From the IMG/VR virus record IMGVR_UViG_3300028781_000008: 44,256 nt of DNA, one strand, 5' to 3'. This document shows positions 1,981 through 6,162 of this stretch, piece by piece. Numbering within the stretch: position 1 is the stretch's first letter; each line of letters starts with the position of its first letter. Position numbers and translations under genes: made by a program. This DNA is from a virus. Under the pieces are notes generated by a model that did not search any database, had not been told where the DNA came from, and saw nothing but the letters and a program-made list of their open reading frames with translations.

Positions 1981-2293
1981 GGGTACAGGGGATAGGGTAT
2001 AGTACCCGGTTTACCCCTCCCCCGTCAAGCACCAAATTGGTGAATCTAGTATCTGTGTTTTATGCCTTCTTACTTTCTATACCCCCTAACTAACTTATAT
2101 ATAAAGCACTACACTGCGCGTATATTTTAGGGGGTATAAAAAATAAAAATTAAAGATATACCTATATAGTTAGTTATAAGTCTATTAGAAGGCACATAAC
2201 TAACTACACTTTATATACGCCTACAAGTCTGTAATGTGTTCGTAAGGGGAGGAGGGGGTAAAGTACTGGAGTGTACCCGGTACCCTATCCCCT
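1981..2293. repeat. Large imperfect multi-block palindrome with TAACTAACT iterons (candidate origin or structured intergenic element)
   Basis: Collinear inverted blocks: AGGGGATAGGGTA 1987-1999 vs its exact RC at 2281-2293. TTTACCCCTCCCCC 2010-2023 vs GGGGAGGAGGGGGTAAA 2246-2262. TGCCTTCT 2063-2070 vs AGAAGGCA 2187-2194. AACTAACT(T)ATATA 2088-2101 vs TATATAGTTAGTT 2163-2175. There is also an exact 12-bp inverted repeat TATACCCCCTAA 2078-2089 / TTAGGGGGTATA 2127-2138. TAACTAACT occurs at 2087-2095 and 2197-2205 (direct) and 2168-2176 (inverted). Confidence 0.75.
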
Positions 2294-2302
2294 AATCATT
2301 GC

Positions 2303-2956
2303 TCACAAACCTAACATCTCTTCCACACTGACTTCTTTCATAGCCTGCAACTTAGCAATCAATCTAGCTCCAATTCCATCACTTGTATCTACCAATCCGA
2401 GCGCTTTCTCCAATTTACTTCTCTTATCTGCAGCAAATACAGTTCTTCCACCAGCAAGTGCTGCAAAGCAGTCTCTATATACATTGCACATTTGTTGCAA
2501 TTTCTGTGTCTGTTCTTCACTGCAGTCATCACTGATACCTAGTTTCTCCGCAAATGCCAGAAGTAACATATCTTGCAGTTCACTATCGAACCAGTATTTG
2601 ATCTGTTCCCCATTAAGTCTGTCACCTGCAGCTTGCTGCACCAAATAGGATTTCACTGCAGCTACATCGATTTCCTCACTTGTTACTGCATCCTTATCAG
2701 CTACACATGCCTCGCGAATGATTTCATCCTGTACACCATGAAACCATTGGGAGATCTGCGGTGACAGTACTTCATAGTCCTCTGCACTCAGCACTGTTAC
2801 TGGAACAGATACGCACTGACTATCTTTCGCCTTACTTCCTGACTTATCCTTTTTGAATCTCACCACACTTAATCTCTGACCGCTAAGAGCAGTAGATTTA
2901 TCTTTGCCGTTAGAGTTGTAAGTAGTGAAAATGTGACGATCTGAAATATTGCTCAT
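2303..2956 (-). CDS. Hypothetical protein (217 aa), divergent paralog of the 240-aa protein at 38267-38989
   Basis: ATG with GGTG upstream. Segments shared with the 240-aa protein: VRFKKDKSGSK..VSVPVTVLSAED vs MRFSFKSDKETGFK..ELHLPVLSAEG, and a C-terminal tail EVSVEEMLGL vs NISEEEMLAAL. Confidence 0.75.
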   Translation of the reverse strand: MSNISDRHIFTTYNSNGKDKSTALSGQRLSVVRFKKDKSGSKAKDSQCVSVPVTVLSAEDYEVLSPQISQWFHGVQDEIIREACVADKDAVTSEEIDVAAVKSYLVQQAAGDRLNGEQIKYWFDSELQDMLLLAFAEKLGISDDCSEEQTQKLQQMCNVYRDCFAALAGGRTVFAADKRSKLEKALGLVDTSDGIGARLIAKLQAMKEVSVEEMLGL

Positions 2957-2999
2957 TTTTGCACCTATTTAGTATCTAGGGGTTGAAAAAGAAAATAGA

Positions 3000-3027
3000 A
3001 TCTTACAATCTGATTACGCAGTTACAA
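3000..3027 (-). promoter_or_regulatory. Candidate sigma70-like promoter for the 217-aa gene
   Basis: Minus strand: TTGTAA (3027-3022), 16-nt spacer, TAAGAT (3005-3000), about 45 nt upstream of the ATG at 2956. The match to consensus is weak. Confidence 0.2.
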
Positions 3028-3031
3028 GTAC

Positions 3032-3139
3032 TCAATCTGCCCACAGTGGCAACCAATAAATCCAATCATAAGTTAGACCATCAATTGCGAATGCGAATGT
3101 GGCACTTGTGTATTCCAATACATTACCAAAATCATCCAT
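3032..3139 (-). CDS. Small hypothetical protein (35 aa)
   Basis: Hand-translated. Strong SD AGGAG (3150-3146) lies 6 nt before the ATG at 3139-3137; TGA at 3034-3032. Product: MDDFGNVLEYTSATFAFAIDGLTYDWIYWLPLWAD. Confidence 0.4.
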   Translation of the reverse strand: MDDFGNVLEYTSATFAFAIDGLTYDWIYWLPLWAD

Positions 3140-3156
3140 AACAATCTCCTAGTGTT

Positions 3157-3168
3157 GTGAGTACTCAC
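3157..3168. promoter_or_regulatory. Perfect 12-bp palindrome GTGAGTACTCAC (candidate operator)
   Basis: Self-complementary 12-mer at 3157-3168, just upstream (minus sense) of the SD of the 35-aa ORF. Confidence 0.3.
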
Positions 3169-3206
3169 TGCGAATGCCCACAATCCTAGGAGCTAGTTGG
3201 ATCGCC

Positions 3207-3246
3207 TCTCACCTGTCATATGAGTGACAGTCAGTGACAGGTGAGA
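3207..3246. repeat. 12-bp-stem hairpin with a tandem GTGACAG alternative arm
   Basis: TCTCACCTGTCA (3207-3218) is the exact RC of TGACAGGTGAGA (3235-3246). The 16-nt loop contains a second GTGACAG (3224-3230) that could pair alternatively with CTGTCA (3213-3218). Confidence 0.6.
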
Positions 3247-3641
3247 ACTACAAAGCGAATCCACTAGCTACTAGCGGTTTATCAAATTGTCAGTAGCATC
3301 AAGAAATAGCTACCAAGAGCATGCCTAATGGCGTTGGTACGTCGTGTCTGGCATTCACAGACTTACGAGACCCATTACATTTACTCACTACAACTACTAA
3401 CGAAATCTACTCTTTGAATCACCTGCCTTACGAAACAACAAACTGCACTAATATCTTAGGTCATCCAGCAGAAAAATGTTGATATTCTCTAGAGTAAGTA
3501 TTCTATTAATACAGTCTGTAAGCAATATCCATCATTGCTCATGCAATCAATACTTACAACTAGCTAACAGCAAGCCACTAACTGAATGCGAATGAGAATG
3601 ATTCGTACTAGCTAGATGATAATGAGATGCAATTGCGAAGT

Positions 3642-3650
3642 GGGGGGGGG
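3642..3650. repeat. G9 homopolymer in non-coding DNA
   Basis: tggggggggg at 3641-3650. This is the longest G run I see in an otherwise low-GC genome. Confidence 0.9.
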
Positions 3651-3818
3651 TATCGACCTTTTTAGCAAGTGATACCTCCTTTGACCTATGAAACCTCTCT
3701 AAATTTTCTAAAGTTTTTACCTATTTCCTACCAACTTCTTGCCATCTATCACTTTTGATCTACAGCTATCTCTCAAATATTTCCTAGAATCTGACACAAG
3801 CATTTCCAGGATCCCCAA

Positions 3819-3846
3819 TTAGTATCTAACCATTCCATGATAGAAT
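3819..3846 (+). promoter_or_regulatory. Candidate extended -10 promoter for the late (rightward) arm
   Basis: TGaTAGAAT at 3838-3846 (TG at 3838-3839, TAGAAT at 3841-3846). A weak -35 TTAGTA sits at 3819-3824 with a 16-nt spacer. It lies about 26 nt upstream of the SD AGGAG (3861-3865) and the ATG at 3872. Confidence 0.3.
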
Positions 3847-3871
3847 CTAATTATTGAATTAGGAGCCAGTC

Positions 3872-4465
3872 ATGTCAGAAGTCACATCAGCTACATCAAT
3901 CCCAGCATACACTGGTACCCAGGGGCGCGCCCTAGAACTCCTGGGAGATGGAATACAAGCATCCATTGTAGCTCAAACACTAGGAGTAAGTGAGAGTTAT
4001 GTTTCACAACTCCTAGCAGATGAGATGTTTTTACGTGGAGTTGTAGAACGCCGCTATGAACATTTAGCTCGCCATAACAAACGAGATGCAGAGTATGATT
4101 CAGTAGAAGATAAATTATTAGAGAAATTGAAACAAACATTACCATTGCTTTTTGACCCAATGAAAATAGCAAGAGTACTTCAGACTGTAAATGCAGCTAA
4201 GCGACGTGGCCAATCAGATCCAGCTTCCATTACACAGCAAAATGTAATTGTAAATCTCCTAATGCCCACTAAAATCATCGATAGATTTCAAATTACTAAA
4301 GATGTCAATAACCAAATTATTGAAGCTGGCAATCAGAAACTAGTAACTATTGGATCGAATACATTACTTGATAGAGTGAAACAATCTCAACAGAGACAAT
4401 TAGAAGTAGGAGTAGTAAATGGTGAACAGCAAAATGGAATTACTGCTAGTGGAACTTCGAGCTAA
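3872..4465 (+). CDS. Putative terminase small subunit (197 aa)
   Basis: First gene of the late arm, directly upstream of terL, with SD AGGAG. It has an N-terminal HTH-like segment IQASIVAQTLGVSESYVSQLL followed by a charged helical region. Assignment is by position and architecture only. Confidence 0.55.
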   Translation: MSEVTSATSIPAYTGTQGRALELLGDGIQASIVAQTLGVSESYVSQLLADEMFLRGVVERRYEHLARHNKRDAEYDSVEDKLLEKLKQTLPLLFDPMKIARVLQTVNAAKRRGQSDPASITQQNVIVNLLMPTKIIDRFQITKDVNNQIIEAGNQKLVTIGSNTLLDRVKQSQQRQLEVGVVNGEQQNGITASGTSS

Positions 4466-4601
4466 CCTTACTCTCGAACAAGTACAAGAACAAAATGCAG
4501 TGCAACTTGCAACTGCTGAAAAACTTCGTCTTGCAAATAAAGCTAAAGCAGAAGTAATTCTTAAAACAATTAAAATGGGACTTGCACGTAACAATGGCTA
4601 A
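4419..4601 (+). CDS. Small coiled-coil hypothetical protein (60 aa)
   Basis: AGGAG lies 6 nt upstream of the ATG at 4419. It overlaps the terS-like gene by 47 nt in another frame. Its stop overlaps the terL ATG (ATGGCTAA). It fills the terS-terL gap. Confidence 0.35.
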   Translation: MVNSKMELLLVELRANLTLEQVQEQNAVQLATAEKLRLANKAKAEVILKTIKMGLARNNG

Positions 4602-6162
4602 ATCAGTTGATGAGATGTTACAGGCTTTGGGAGAAGTTGCTCCTACAATTATTCCCCAGATCTCAAATATACCTGAGATGGAATTGGCACCTGTACAAGA
4701 ATCAGCTTTCAACTCTCAGGAAGTTATAGAGAATGCTAGAGAGTCATTAGATTTTCTAGCCGCCCTTGCACTCCCGTTGATTTTCAAATATTTCTTTCCT
4801 CCAGTTTTCATCTCTGTATGGAAATGGTTAAGATCTTATGCTCACCAAGTTCGTGCATTCCCACAACTTGCACTTGGTCTTCCGCGTGGCTTTGGTAAAA
4901 CAACAGTAATTAAATTATTTGTTCTTTATTGTATTCTTTTCACTAAGAAACAATTCATCCTTGTAATTTCTGAGACTGATCGTAAAGCAATTTCTATCAT
5001 TGCTGACATATGTGATATGTTAGATGAACCAAACATTAAAAAATTATTTGGTGATTGGAAAGTAGGAGCTGAAATAGATCGCCAAGATATGAAGAAATTC
5101 GGCTTTCGTGGTCGAAATATTATGTTAAAAGCTGCAGGTTCTGGTACTGGAATTCGTGGTATTAATGAAAAGAATCTACGTCCAGATGTAATGATTTTCG
5201 ATGACATTCAATCTCGTGAGGACGCAGATTCTCCAACTATTTCGGAAGCATTAGAAACTTGGATGTATGGTACTGCAATGAAAGCTAAATCACCTGAAGG
5301 GTGTATGTTTCTTTTCATTGCTAATATGTATCCCACTAAGTGGTCTCTCCTACGTAGATTAAAAAGAAATCCTAAATGGATTAAATTCATTGCTGGCGGT
5401 ATTCTAGAATCTGGGGAGTCTTTGTGGGAAGATCTACAACCAATTGAACAATTACTAAATGAATTTGAGAACGATGTAGCAGCTGGTCACCCAGAGATCT
5501 TCTTCGCAGAAGTTCTAAATGATGAGAATGCGGCCTCTAATAATCTCATTGATTTATCTAGACTTCCAGTTCCTCGTTTCGATTGGGATGAACCTGCAGC
5601 TGGCCGCTTCATAGTAGTTGATCCTGCAGCTAAATCTAATCCAACTTCAGATGCCGTCACTGTTGCATATGCAGAAGTACACGATTCATTACCTTGTTGG
5701 AGAGAAATTGATGAAGATAGAATGTCTCCAGGAGAATCTATACGTAGAGCTCTGATGATGGCATTGAAGCATGGTGTGCGAGTAGTTGGTGTAGAAGCTA
5801 CAGCATATCAAGCAACTTATGCTTGGTGGTTTCAATACATTTGTCTCCAGTATGGAATTACTGGAATTGAGTGTGTGGAACTGTATACAGGTACAATGTC
5901 TAAAAATGCTCGTATTCTTTCCATGCTAAAAGCATATGCAGCTGGGGAGTTCTATATCCATCCAGATGCACAGCCTCCAGCGCACTTACAAATCACCCAG
6001 TTTAAACCACTTAAAAGAGATAATACAGATGGAATTCTAGATTGTCTCTGTTATGGTCCTAAGATGATTGAAGAATTTGGGCATCTAATTGAGTCTTATA
6101 CAATCATTGAATCTCAAGAGTACGATGCAATTCCAGTATTAGAACATAACTCACCCTTTTAA
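4594..6162 (+). CDS. terL: Terminase large subunit
   Basis: The track ORF starts at TTG 4582, so I use the ATG at 4594 (MAKSVDEML). Walker A-like GLPRGFGKTT. Walker B-like DVMIFDDIQSRED. C-terminal RNaseH-like nuclease acidic motifs FIVVDPAAK, VGVEATAYQ and DGILDCLCYG. Confidence 0.9.
   Translation: MAKSVDEMLQALGEVAPTIIPQISNIPEMELAPVQESAFNSQEVIENARESLDFLAALALPLIFKYFFPPVFISVWKWLRSYAHQVRAFPQLALGLPRGFGKTTVIKLFVLYCILFTKKQFILVISETDRKAISIIADICDMLDEPNIKKLFGDWKVGAEIDRQDMKKFGFRGRNIMLKAAGSGTGIRGINEKNLRPDVMIFDDIQSREDADSPTISEALETWMYGTAMKAKSPEGCMFLFIANMYPTKWSLLRRLKRNPKWIKFIAGGILESGESLWEDLQPIEQLLNEFENDVAAGHPEIFFAEVLNDENAASNNLIDLSRLPVPRFDWDEPAAGRFIVVDPAAKSNPTSDAVTVAYAEVHDSLPCWREIDEDRMSPGESIRRALMMALKHGVRVVGVEATAYQATYAWWFQYICLQYGITGIECVELYTGTMSKNARILSMLKAYAAGEFYIHPDAQPPAHLQITQFKPLKRDNTDGILDCLCYGPKMIEEFGHLIESYTIIESQEYDAIPVLEHNSPF

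Follow-up and report, generated by a model that had tools for sequence, protein, structure and literature searches.

This paper describes the region that separates the two transcriptional arms of an uncultured podophage genome, IMG/VR virus record IMGVR_UViG_3300028781_000008, of which one strand of 44,256 nucleotides (nt), here called the window, was analysed. An earlier note, made from the letters of the window alone, had singled out a repeat-dense stretch of about 730 nt (3140-3871) without open reading frames (ORFs) as a candidate origin, packaging site or noncoding RNA (ncRNA) locus. Comparison with related phages confirmed the observation and partly supported the interpretation: the gap is probably a divergent early/late control region, in which the leader of the leftward early operon carries a boxA signal, and in which two conserved blocks, B4 and B5, stand at the entrance of the rightward operon of the small terminase (terS), large terminase (terL), portal and structural genes. 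Moreover, B4 and B5 most likely constitute a candidate terminase recognition and initiation (pac) site, possibly overlapping a late promoter.

The last 127 nt of the window are identical to the first 127, and the window is therefore a circularly closed assembly with 44,129 unique bases. The genome is complete, comes from a peat podophage and is present in at least 24 peat-metagenome runs, in three of them at 47-67x contig depth; the phage is uncultured and distantly related to the Pseudomonas PaP2/119X group (Fredfastierviridae). The closest cultured phages share only about 33% TerL identity with it; they are the Pseudomonas phages PaP2, 119X and Neko (Jamesmcgillvirus, Fredfastierviridae), Polaromonas phage Tiera, Aeromonas phage P5 and EBPR podovirus 3. 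The plus-strand arm (3872-28061) opens with a small-terminase-like gene (terS, 3872-4465) followed by terL and an SU10-like portal gene, and the minus-strand arm runs from 28134 through the junction to 2956 and encodes a primase, a family-A DNA polymerase, a Dda-like helicase, a Sak4-like protein, exonucleases and MazG. If only ORFs that lie on the expected strands and measure 50 aa or more are counted, the gap between these arms (2957-3871) amounts to 915 nt, which is the largest in the genome, the runner-up measuring 331 nt.

Related loci were collected through TerL (31 IMG/VR loci) and through TerS homologues in Logan, ENA and JGI data (13 further loci), and were compared in an alignment designated A2 and in a 15-sequence alignment representing 13 distinct genomes. 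Additional searches were unproductive: p217, the minus-strand gene bordering the gap, yielded no confirmed relative when used as query for related viral loci, a JGI metagenome scan with terS gave no additional contig, a scan of IMG/VR with the 15-mer GCCTARTGGCATTGG returned 120 chance matches and no relative, and blastn of the gap against GenBank phages found no match. The order of p217 (minus), gap and terS (plus) is kept in 8 IMG/VR loci and in 9 loci of the close clade, which supports the view of the earlier note that both arms are transcribed outward from a divergent control region. Non-coding DNA of 500-715 nt occupies the same place in each of 13 close relatives, and the alignments revealed conserved blocks in fixed order, including covarying hairpins, with freely diverging sequence between them. 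These blocks, and the other features of the window, are the following.

3032-3139, minus strand: putative 35-aa ORF with a strong Shine-Dalgarno (SD) sequence, the first ORF of the leftward operon.
3148-3190, minus strand: predicted SD-sequestering hairpin that pairs the SD CUAGGAG of the first ORF and holds GTGAGTACTCAC (3157-3168) and TGCGAAT (3169).
3186-3274, minus strand: long, near-continuous hairpin of about 28 bp, with outer arms at 3186-3205/3255-3274 and a perfect 12-bp inner stem at 3207-3218/3235-3246.
3285-3313, minus strand: conserved block CUGACAAUU (CAGACAAUU in relatives) with hairpin H0 (GTAGC...GCTAC, 3293-3313), which shows compensatory changes.
3313-3321, minus strand: boxA-like UGCUCUUGG, which matches the rrn boxA UGCUCUUUA at 7 of 9 positions and is the positional homologue of the exact boxA of relatives.
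3323-3332, minus strand: hairpin Ha, GCC-UAAU-GGC, directly 5' of boxA, with two compensatory variants (GAC/GUC and GUC/GAC).
3336-3372, minus strand: hairpin Hb, with a conserved apical loop of 7-8 nt (GGnAWTCA on the plus strand, GCATTCA in the window) and covarying inner and outer stems.
3405-3420, minus strand: conserved block B3 (ATCTAcTCTtTgaATC on the plus strand), in the 5' part of the leader.
3446-3140, minus strand: predicted early leader of about 300 nt, strongly structured.
3453-3482, minus strand: putative leftward early promoter, with -10 TAAGAT (3453-3458), an 18-nt spacer and -35 TCAACA (3477-3482); predicted start at about 3446.
3488-3518, no strand assigned: block TCTAGAGTAAGTATTCTATTAATACAGTCTG, just upstream of the early promoter and near-identical in two relatives (L001 and L042); two other module types are found elsewhere.
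3584-3612, no strand assigned: B4, a tandem array of GAATGN hexamers that ends in an imperfect palindrome, GAGAAT-G-ATTCGT (3594-3606).
3642-3720, plus strand: B5, composed of G9 (3642-3650), TATCGACC, T5 (3659-3663), CTTTGACCTAT (3679-3689) and AATTTTCTAAAGTTTTT (3702-3718).
3721-3871, plus strand: terS leader, with conserved GATCCCC (3810-3816; GAACCCC in relatives) and a variable hairpin.
3841-3865, plus strand: terS leader signals, -10-like TAGAAT (3841-3846) and SD AGGAG (3861-3865), ahead of the ATG at 3872.

In the minus-strand RNA, Ha is directly followed on its 3' side by boxA, the most conserved block of the left half. In two relatives (L040 and L048) the block reads CGCUCUUUAACAAU and agrees with the Escherichia coli rrnB leader GCUCUUUAACAAU at 13 of 13 positions, and the distant relative L017 carries GCUCUUUAACAA, a match of 12 out of 12. 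Further matches amount to 11/12 in L001 and L045 and to 10/12 in L042, the lambda-type boxA CGCUCUUA is exact in L037 and L043, and the same slot is filled by UGCUCUUUG/A in L038 and L036, by UGUUCUUA in L039 and by CGUUCUUGG in L041. A 12-mer identity is expected about 4e-5 times per gap of about 600 nt by our own estimate, and it was seen in three lineages. In rrn operons the order is stem-loop, boxA and boxC, with boxA being UGCUCUUUA followed by the spacer ACAAUUUA, an AACAAU spacer being reported as NusA-binding, and the lambda boxA is CGCUCUUA (PMC2724277). The E. coli rrnB leader can be aligned with the phage leaders across stem-loop, boxA and spacer, and has CAGACAAU in common, further downstream, with the CAGACAAUU block of the relatives. 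The order Hb-Ha-boxA is kept in 12 of the 13 relatives, so that the rrn-type succession of stem-loop, boxA and spacer recurs behind a predicted promoter; for boxC, CUGUGUG-like words occur in L037 and L040, and most relatives have only CAGACAAU in common with rrnB. The identity of boxA designates the minus strand as the functional strand of at least this part of the region. On its sequence, the leader reads as a nut-like or rrn-like antitermination module, with the boxA of the window about 165 nt upstream of the SD of the first gene. A boxA was also sought in the cultured phages Neko, Tiera and P5, where it is absent.

A sigma-70 matrix scan on the alignment gave a single positionally conserved site, which lies on the minus strand. 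A TAnnnT hexamer stands in the same column in 13 of 13 genomes (TACAAT, TATGAT, TATTAT and others), and a -35-like hexamer (TTGAT/TCAACA) is found 17-19 nt upstream of it in about half of them. We infer from this that 3453-3482 is a leftward early promoter of the host type, although the corresponding TCAACA-N18-TAAGAT of the window was not listed by a stricter promoter scan.

The RNA that would be transcribed from this promoter is strongly structured. The segment 3135-3285 folds far better than its shuffles (z -5.9 for the plus strand and -5.0 for the minus strand), and the predicted minus-strand leaders of 222-493 nt have a mean z of -3.7 relative to dinucleotide shuffles (-3.3 to -3.9 for the window); in 9 out of 12 leaders, 0 of 50 shuffles folds as well. 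Moreover, compensatory changes were found at 4 of the 7 consensus pairs of Ha and Hb together. The inner stem of Hb, CUAG/CUAG, is replaced by UCUG/CAGA in the window, CAGG/CCUG in L038 and GGCG/CGCC in L043, and in every relative Hb is extended by a further 5-8 pairs built from unrelated sequence, with a complementarity of the outer arms above that of shuffled arms (mean z about -2 per sequence). Closer to the first gene, 7 of the 10 relatives with a small first gene (the window, L038, L039, L040, L041, L043 and L048) can fold the SD, as 3' arm, into a hairpin of 12-17 bp, and the stem sequences differ among them. The long hairpin at 3186-3274 may be an RNase III-type substrate within the leader. 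The suggestion of the earlier note that the gap holds structured ncRNA thus stood as far as conserved, structured RNA is concerned, whereas a free-standing RNA was not supported and the structures are better explained as the 5' leader of the leftward early operon. Scans with Rfam 15 and, for tRNA, with ARAGORN gave no match at gathering scores, and Rfam matches at E values up to 10 were only chance snoRNA or leader matches, far below threshold.

The right third of the gap contains B5, which is conserved more strongly than any other non-coding sequence of the family, by sequence and not by covariation. Its consensus is GGGGGTA(T/G)GGACC-T5-6-AGG, about 18 nt, (C/T)TATCCTAAAG, about 12 nt, and AATTTTCTAAAnTTTTT. 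A hidden Markov model (HMM) derived from five G-run block copies located B5 at the corresponding position in 23 of 31 IMG/VR loci and in all close relatives. Its distance upstream of terS is 176-276 nt in 23 loci, and the 24 loci in which it was found have a TerL identity of 42-82%. B5 is also present in cultured Pseudomonas phage Neko (E 9e-12) and Aeromonas phage P5 (E 1.7e-5). In the window genome it is single copy and adjoins the terminase genes, as a pac or cos site would, and the packaging site proposed by the earlier note has a strong candidate just upstream of terS. The G run is flanked by a GAGAATnATTCTC-type palindrome or a hexamer array in the close clade and in L014, L016, L019 and L022, and in other lineages words of the GTRAGTACTNAC type or CATCAAACATATA repeats take the position of B4. 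B5 also contains the start of the Polaromonas phage Tiera record, whose first bases carry the CTAAAC box and whose last bases carry GGGGGTGGTCGGCTTTTTT, the G-run/T-run half.

Three other identities of B5 were considered and dropped. The left part of B5 is not an intrinsic terminator, because no consistent GC-rich stem precedes the T run in 24 relatives; for a canonical sigma-70 promoter the spacing is wrong, with TTGACC 22 nt from TAAAGT; and a T7-like terminal-repeat element has only the words GGGGGTA and CCTAAAG in common with B5 (HMM E 0.12). In Neko (L032, PQ628080), the annotated 46-aa gp5 (1658-1798) overlies B5 (1678-1763), and gp5 is probably not a gene. In IMG/VR contig L015, positions 1-17 are the leftover of a random-PCR primer, GTTTCCCAGTCACGATC, which the G run follows directly.

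Taken as a control region, the gap would work as follows. In its left two-thirds (about 3140-3482), the leftward promoter would give rise to a structured 5' leader of about 300 nt for the operon of the early replication arm, which in 5' to 3' direction of the minus strand would present Hb, Ha, boxA, H0, the CAGACAAU-type block, the hairpin of about 28 bp and the SD-burying hairpin. NusB/NusE and other host Nus factors would load on boxA, and RNA polymerase thus equipped would resist Rho and terminators over the early arm of about 19 kb, while the downstream hairpins of the leader would set translation or processing of the first gene. In the right third (3584-3720), B4 followed by B5 would serve as the terminase recognition and initiation site.

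Several observations weigh against this proposal. The boxA of the window itself is degenerate, its 9-mer pattern has two further, chance occurrences in the genome, and its identification depends on positional homology with the relatives. No N-like protein or other antiterminator was recognised, with the restriction that the small proteins of unknown function were not exhaustively examined; the first ORFs have no Pfam or PHROG match (the 35-aa ORF is acidic), and p217 has no sequence relative in PDB and no obvious arginine-rich motif. In a scan of 1300-2400, no intrinsic terminator was found in the first downstream gap, and a need for antitermination is consequently not demonstrated. None of the RNA runs searched with the gap and with the capsid gene holds the phage, so that both promoters and the transcribed strand are only inferred. 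Concerning the strand, Hb is slightly more stable on the plus strand in 10 of 12 relatives, and the preference of the whole region for the minus strand is due to base composition only; a choice of strand by folding energies or G-U counts was dropped as confounded by base composition. As to packaging, 16 of 16 GenBank records of PaP2-like phages that were found run straight through B5, two ORFs (1.8 kb) lie between B5 and terS in L024, where B5 is 1.9 kb upstream, and the paper on Tiera determined genome ends by PhageTerm and mentions 'the rearranged genome' but does not state the result for Tiera itself.

Among the other explanations of the gap, a serious rival, and a possible one although we hold it to be less probable than not, is that B5, together with B4, is primarily a late promoter with an activator site, in which the AT-rich TTTTCTAAAGTTTTT would be a -10 or UP-like element and the G run and T run the site of a late regulator. 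B5 is always found at the start of the rightward gene block, including L024 with its two ORFs ahead of terS, the hexamers TAAAGT, TAAACT and TAAATT of the close clade fit TAnnnT, and the plus-strand arm is so tightly packed that one promoter could serve all of it. Against this pure promoter/activator reading, TTGACC (3681-3686) is 22 nt away from TAAAGT and no -35 stands at 16-18 nt, L012 and L031 have TAAAAA and lack the final T, and the conservation of the G run and of TAT-GGACC goes far above what a sigma-70 promoter needs. In addition, a second, better-placed -10-like TAnnnT is found 25-30 nt before terS in all 13 relatives, and the Tiera record and contig L015 both start in B5. It appears improbable that H0, Ha, Hb and the other conserved hairpins are parts of free-standing rightward ncRNAs (one or more), either antisense to the early leader or acting as packaging or regulatory RNA upstream of terS. 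Such RNAs would agree with the covarying stems, with the slightly better folding of Hb on the plus strand and with a weak, promoter-like TTGATA (3479-3484)-N19-TATTAA that extends to 3509 and was recognised by eye as a possible rightward promoter back to back with the early one; however, boxA and the SD-sequestering hairpin make sense only on a minus-strand RNA, no positionally conserved sigma-70-type promoter is found on the plus strand upstream of the hairpins, plus-strand 3512-3668 is not unusually structured (z +0.37), no Rfam family matches and no convincing terminator precedes B5.

The gap might also contain the physical genome ends, in the form of direct terminal repeats, at which many of the related contigs would then break. 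This is unlikely, although 16 of the 31 related IMG/VR contigs begin inside the gap, including several of 20-44 kb, the PaP2-like phage Shea was reported to have terminally redundant ends (PMC13348215), and the L031 contig (44,068 bp) has at both ends, within the gap and 49 nt from the start of p217, a direct repeat of 195 nt with one mismatch, which is longer than the 127-nt overlap of the window and could be either a true terminal repeat or an assembly overlap. The breaks are scattered over 1-660 nt upstream of B5, those of the near-identical L008 and L009 are 88 nt apart while L007 runs through, the window and three Logan assemblies are continuous over the gap, and strain-level hypervariability of the non-coding DNA explains the breaks at least equally well. 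Very unlikely, in our opinion, is a replication origin with iterons, priming hairpins and an AT-rich unwinding stretch. The trend of the GC skew switches sign near the gap, repeats and hexamer arrays are present, L016 and L014 contain TGTCAT-type repeats at a spacing of 20-21 nt (by eye), and a perfect TTATCCACA in L017 and an 8/9 DnaA-box-like word in L016 were seen (by eye); but the skew switch carries no independent information because it coincides with the switch in gene orientation, the repeats are lineage-specific and are accounted for by leader, operator and pac functions, a single perfect DnaA box in about 25 gaps can be due to chance, and no initiator gene was identified beside the region. 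Finally, the idea that the gap is an artefact, i.e., a coding region broken by sequencing frameshifts, has effectively been refuted. Its only attraction is that several close relatives have an extra conserved minus-strand gene for a 63-81-aa protein beside p217 that is missing in the window. Logan contigs of three independent peat runs differ from the window at zero positions over 2000-6000, which excludes sequencing error and frameshifts; six-frame translation of the window shows no remnant of the 63-81-aa protein; and tblastx revealed no conserved coding signal, matching close strains in all six frames and distant relatives without frame-specific conservation in the gap. The earlier note had allowed for homologous phages encoding ordinary proteins here, and all relatives turned out to keep their 500-715 nt without conserved ORFs, apart from the one extra gene in some. 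The small ORFs at 2983-3141, 3321-3482, 3476-3595 and 3717-3818 were likewise rejected as genes (no family match, no SD and no conservation).

The individual sequence elements that the earlier note had reported are all present, at the positions it gave, in the gap, which proved to be free of ORFs as described there. The 35-aa ORF at 3032-3139 is preceded by AGGAG; TGCGAAT occurs at 3086, 3092, 3169 and 3587, with the variants AGCGAAT at 3254 and TGCGAAG at 3634; and the tandem hexamers GAATGCGAATGAGAATGA (3584-3601), the repeat CAATTGCGAA (3082 and 3630), the paired motifs TACAACTACTAAC and TACAACTAGCTAAC (3389-3401 and 3555-3568), the perfect palindrome GTGAGTACTCAC, the 12-bp-stem hairpin at 3207-3246 and the G9 run were all recovered. 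Palindromic, operator-like motifs are in line with its suggestion of regulator binding. An excess of motifs over chance was borne out for CTAG (22 against 8.3 expected) and for TGCGAAT (4 copies against 0.23 expected from the genome-wide density), and 3 of the 5 genome copies of ACTAGCTA lie in the gap; the excess of TGCGAAT alone is only modestly significant, because there are many possible 7-mers and two of the copies overlap in tandem. A recurrence of TGCGAAT at other intergenic promoters was not found: its 7 other copies are scattered outside the gap, and the motif is not conserved family-wide, TGCGAA being enriched in 2 of 13 relatives only (the window and L037).

Some further observations concern the genes and gaps nearby. 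The 35-aa ORF of the window sits in the slot of the 63-81-aa gene and shares its ribosome-binding context, but is unrelated to it. The 63-81-aa family is the first early gene where it occurs (L038 1336-1572, L039 2151-2345, L040 2307-2498, L041 818-1015 and L042 2064-2309), its proteins have the motif H(K/R)A...DA..W...YP in common, and the gene is missing in L001 and L036 as well as in the window. On the other side, a 55-60-aa ORF at 4419-4601 overlaps the end of terS and precedes terL; it was called in every close relative and probably represents a genuine small gene within the packaging module. The second-largest ORF-free gap (1972-2302, 331 nt) lies directly downstream of p217 on the minus strand. 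Its edges form an inverted repeat, GGGGATAGGGTA / TACCCTATCCCC, with ACCGGGTAC beside each arm, its interior is AT-rich, and it contains a sigma-70-like TTGACG-N18-TACTAT on the minus strand (2028-1999); this gap may represent a middle promoter or else an inserted element. The Logan k=31 contigs of the three runs break only in a GCA-repeat tract at about 620-860 of the window, a long imperfect GCA/GCAGCA trinucleotide repeat inside the minus-strand ORF 569-1327, where it encodes a low-complexity C-terminal tail; the contig break at about 680-835 coincides with this tract and was dropped as a genome terminus. Among the relatives, TGTCAT/TGTCAA words about 20-21 nt apart and CATGCC repeats occur in L016 (gap positions 60-180) and L014 (340-440), and both have a perfect TTGACA and a perfect TATAAT just 9 nt apart on the minus strand. 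In IMGVR_UViG_3300048672_000354 (L049/L050), the 195-nt repeat opens with an 11-bp perfect inverted repeat, TCCCTATATTG...CAATATAGGGA, which has a covarying counterpart in L012.

With the gap regarded as an early/late control region, 730 anonymous nt turn into hypotheses on early control, i.e., on Nus dependence, evasion of Rho and translational gating of the first gene. A bolder and decidedly tentative extension is that an environmental podophage family has copied the rrn antitermination signal of its host (stem-loop, boxA and AACAAU spacer) into its early leader, and may hijack the ribosomal Nus/SuhB machinery without an N-like protein, with Hb as a new protein- or RNA-recognition module and B5 as the pac site shared by the assemblage of PaP2/119X, Tiera and peat phages. 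If this were true, the boxA variant of each phage should match the rrn boxA of its host and could mark that host. B5 provides a short, unique signature that peat metagenomes share with cultured phages of Pseudomonas, Polaromonas and Aeromonas; should it be a pac site, the packaging start would be defined for the whole family and at least one database annotation, Neko gp5, would be corrected. More generally, alignment of moderately diverged relatives offers a way to decode the long ORF-free gaps of phage contigs.

Processive antitermination through boxA is textbook knowledge for lambdoid phages and rRNA operons, and pac regions are situated just upstream of, or overlapping, the small-terminase gene, as in SPP1 and in P1, where hexamer arrays flank the pac site. 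The region described here is a variant of both, i.e., of the antitermination leaders of lambda nut and rrn and of the pac sites upstream of terS. To our knowledge, neither such a leader nor such a pac site has been described before in this phage lineage, and we know of no description of boxA antitermination for lytic-type podoviruses belonging to it. Like the pac sites of SPP1 and P1, B5 occurs as a single copy ahead of terS, at a distance of about 150-230 nt, with short repeated words flanking a central G-run/T-run, and the record of one relative starts inside it, in a paper that rearranged genomes after PhageTerm; its sequence, however, resembles none of the pac or cos sites described so far, and it is a candidate site. 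The PaP2/119X-like phages share the arrangement of a minus-strand arm followed by terS, terL and portal, with B5 at 211 nt upstream of terS in Neko, and differ in that TerL is only about 33% identical, the region measures about 376 nt if gp5 is not real, and no boxA within 3 mismatches is found in the leader.

In lambda, nutL precedes N by about 200 bp, the RNA between the two is highly structured, and N translation, which RNase III modulates, is under repression by the antitermination complex (PMC5725501). The phage leader resembles this pL-nutL-N arrangement in belonging to the first early operon beside a divergent control region, and in having boxA upstream of the first gene with structured RNA, a long hairpin and SD occlusion in between. 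It differs from lambda nut in that Ha and Hb lie 5' and not 3' of boxA, and their loops (4 nt, AUUA/AYUA, in Ha and 7-8 nt, UGAWUNCC on the minus strand, in Hb) are not the GNRA-like pentaloops of boxB; moreover, no N-like arginine-rich protein was found here, and the phage is a lytic-type podovirus unrelated to the lambdoids. The 3' end of UGCUCUUGG in the window is closer to the Aquifex form of boxA, GGCUCCUUG, cited in PMC3177189. Compared with the rrn antiterminator (boxB stem-loop, boxA and boxC; NusA/B/E/G, SuhB and S4), the leader is phage-encoded, precedes protein-coding genes and has no clearly present GU-rich boxC, but it shares the succession of a stem-loop and boxA, and in L040 and L048 its identity with the rrnB leader extends over 13 consecutive bases, among them the AACAAU spacer.

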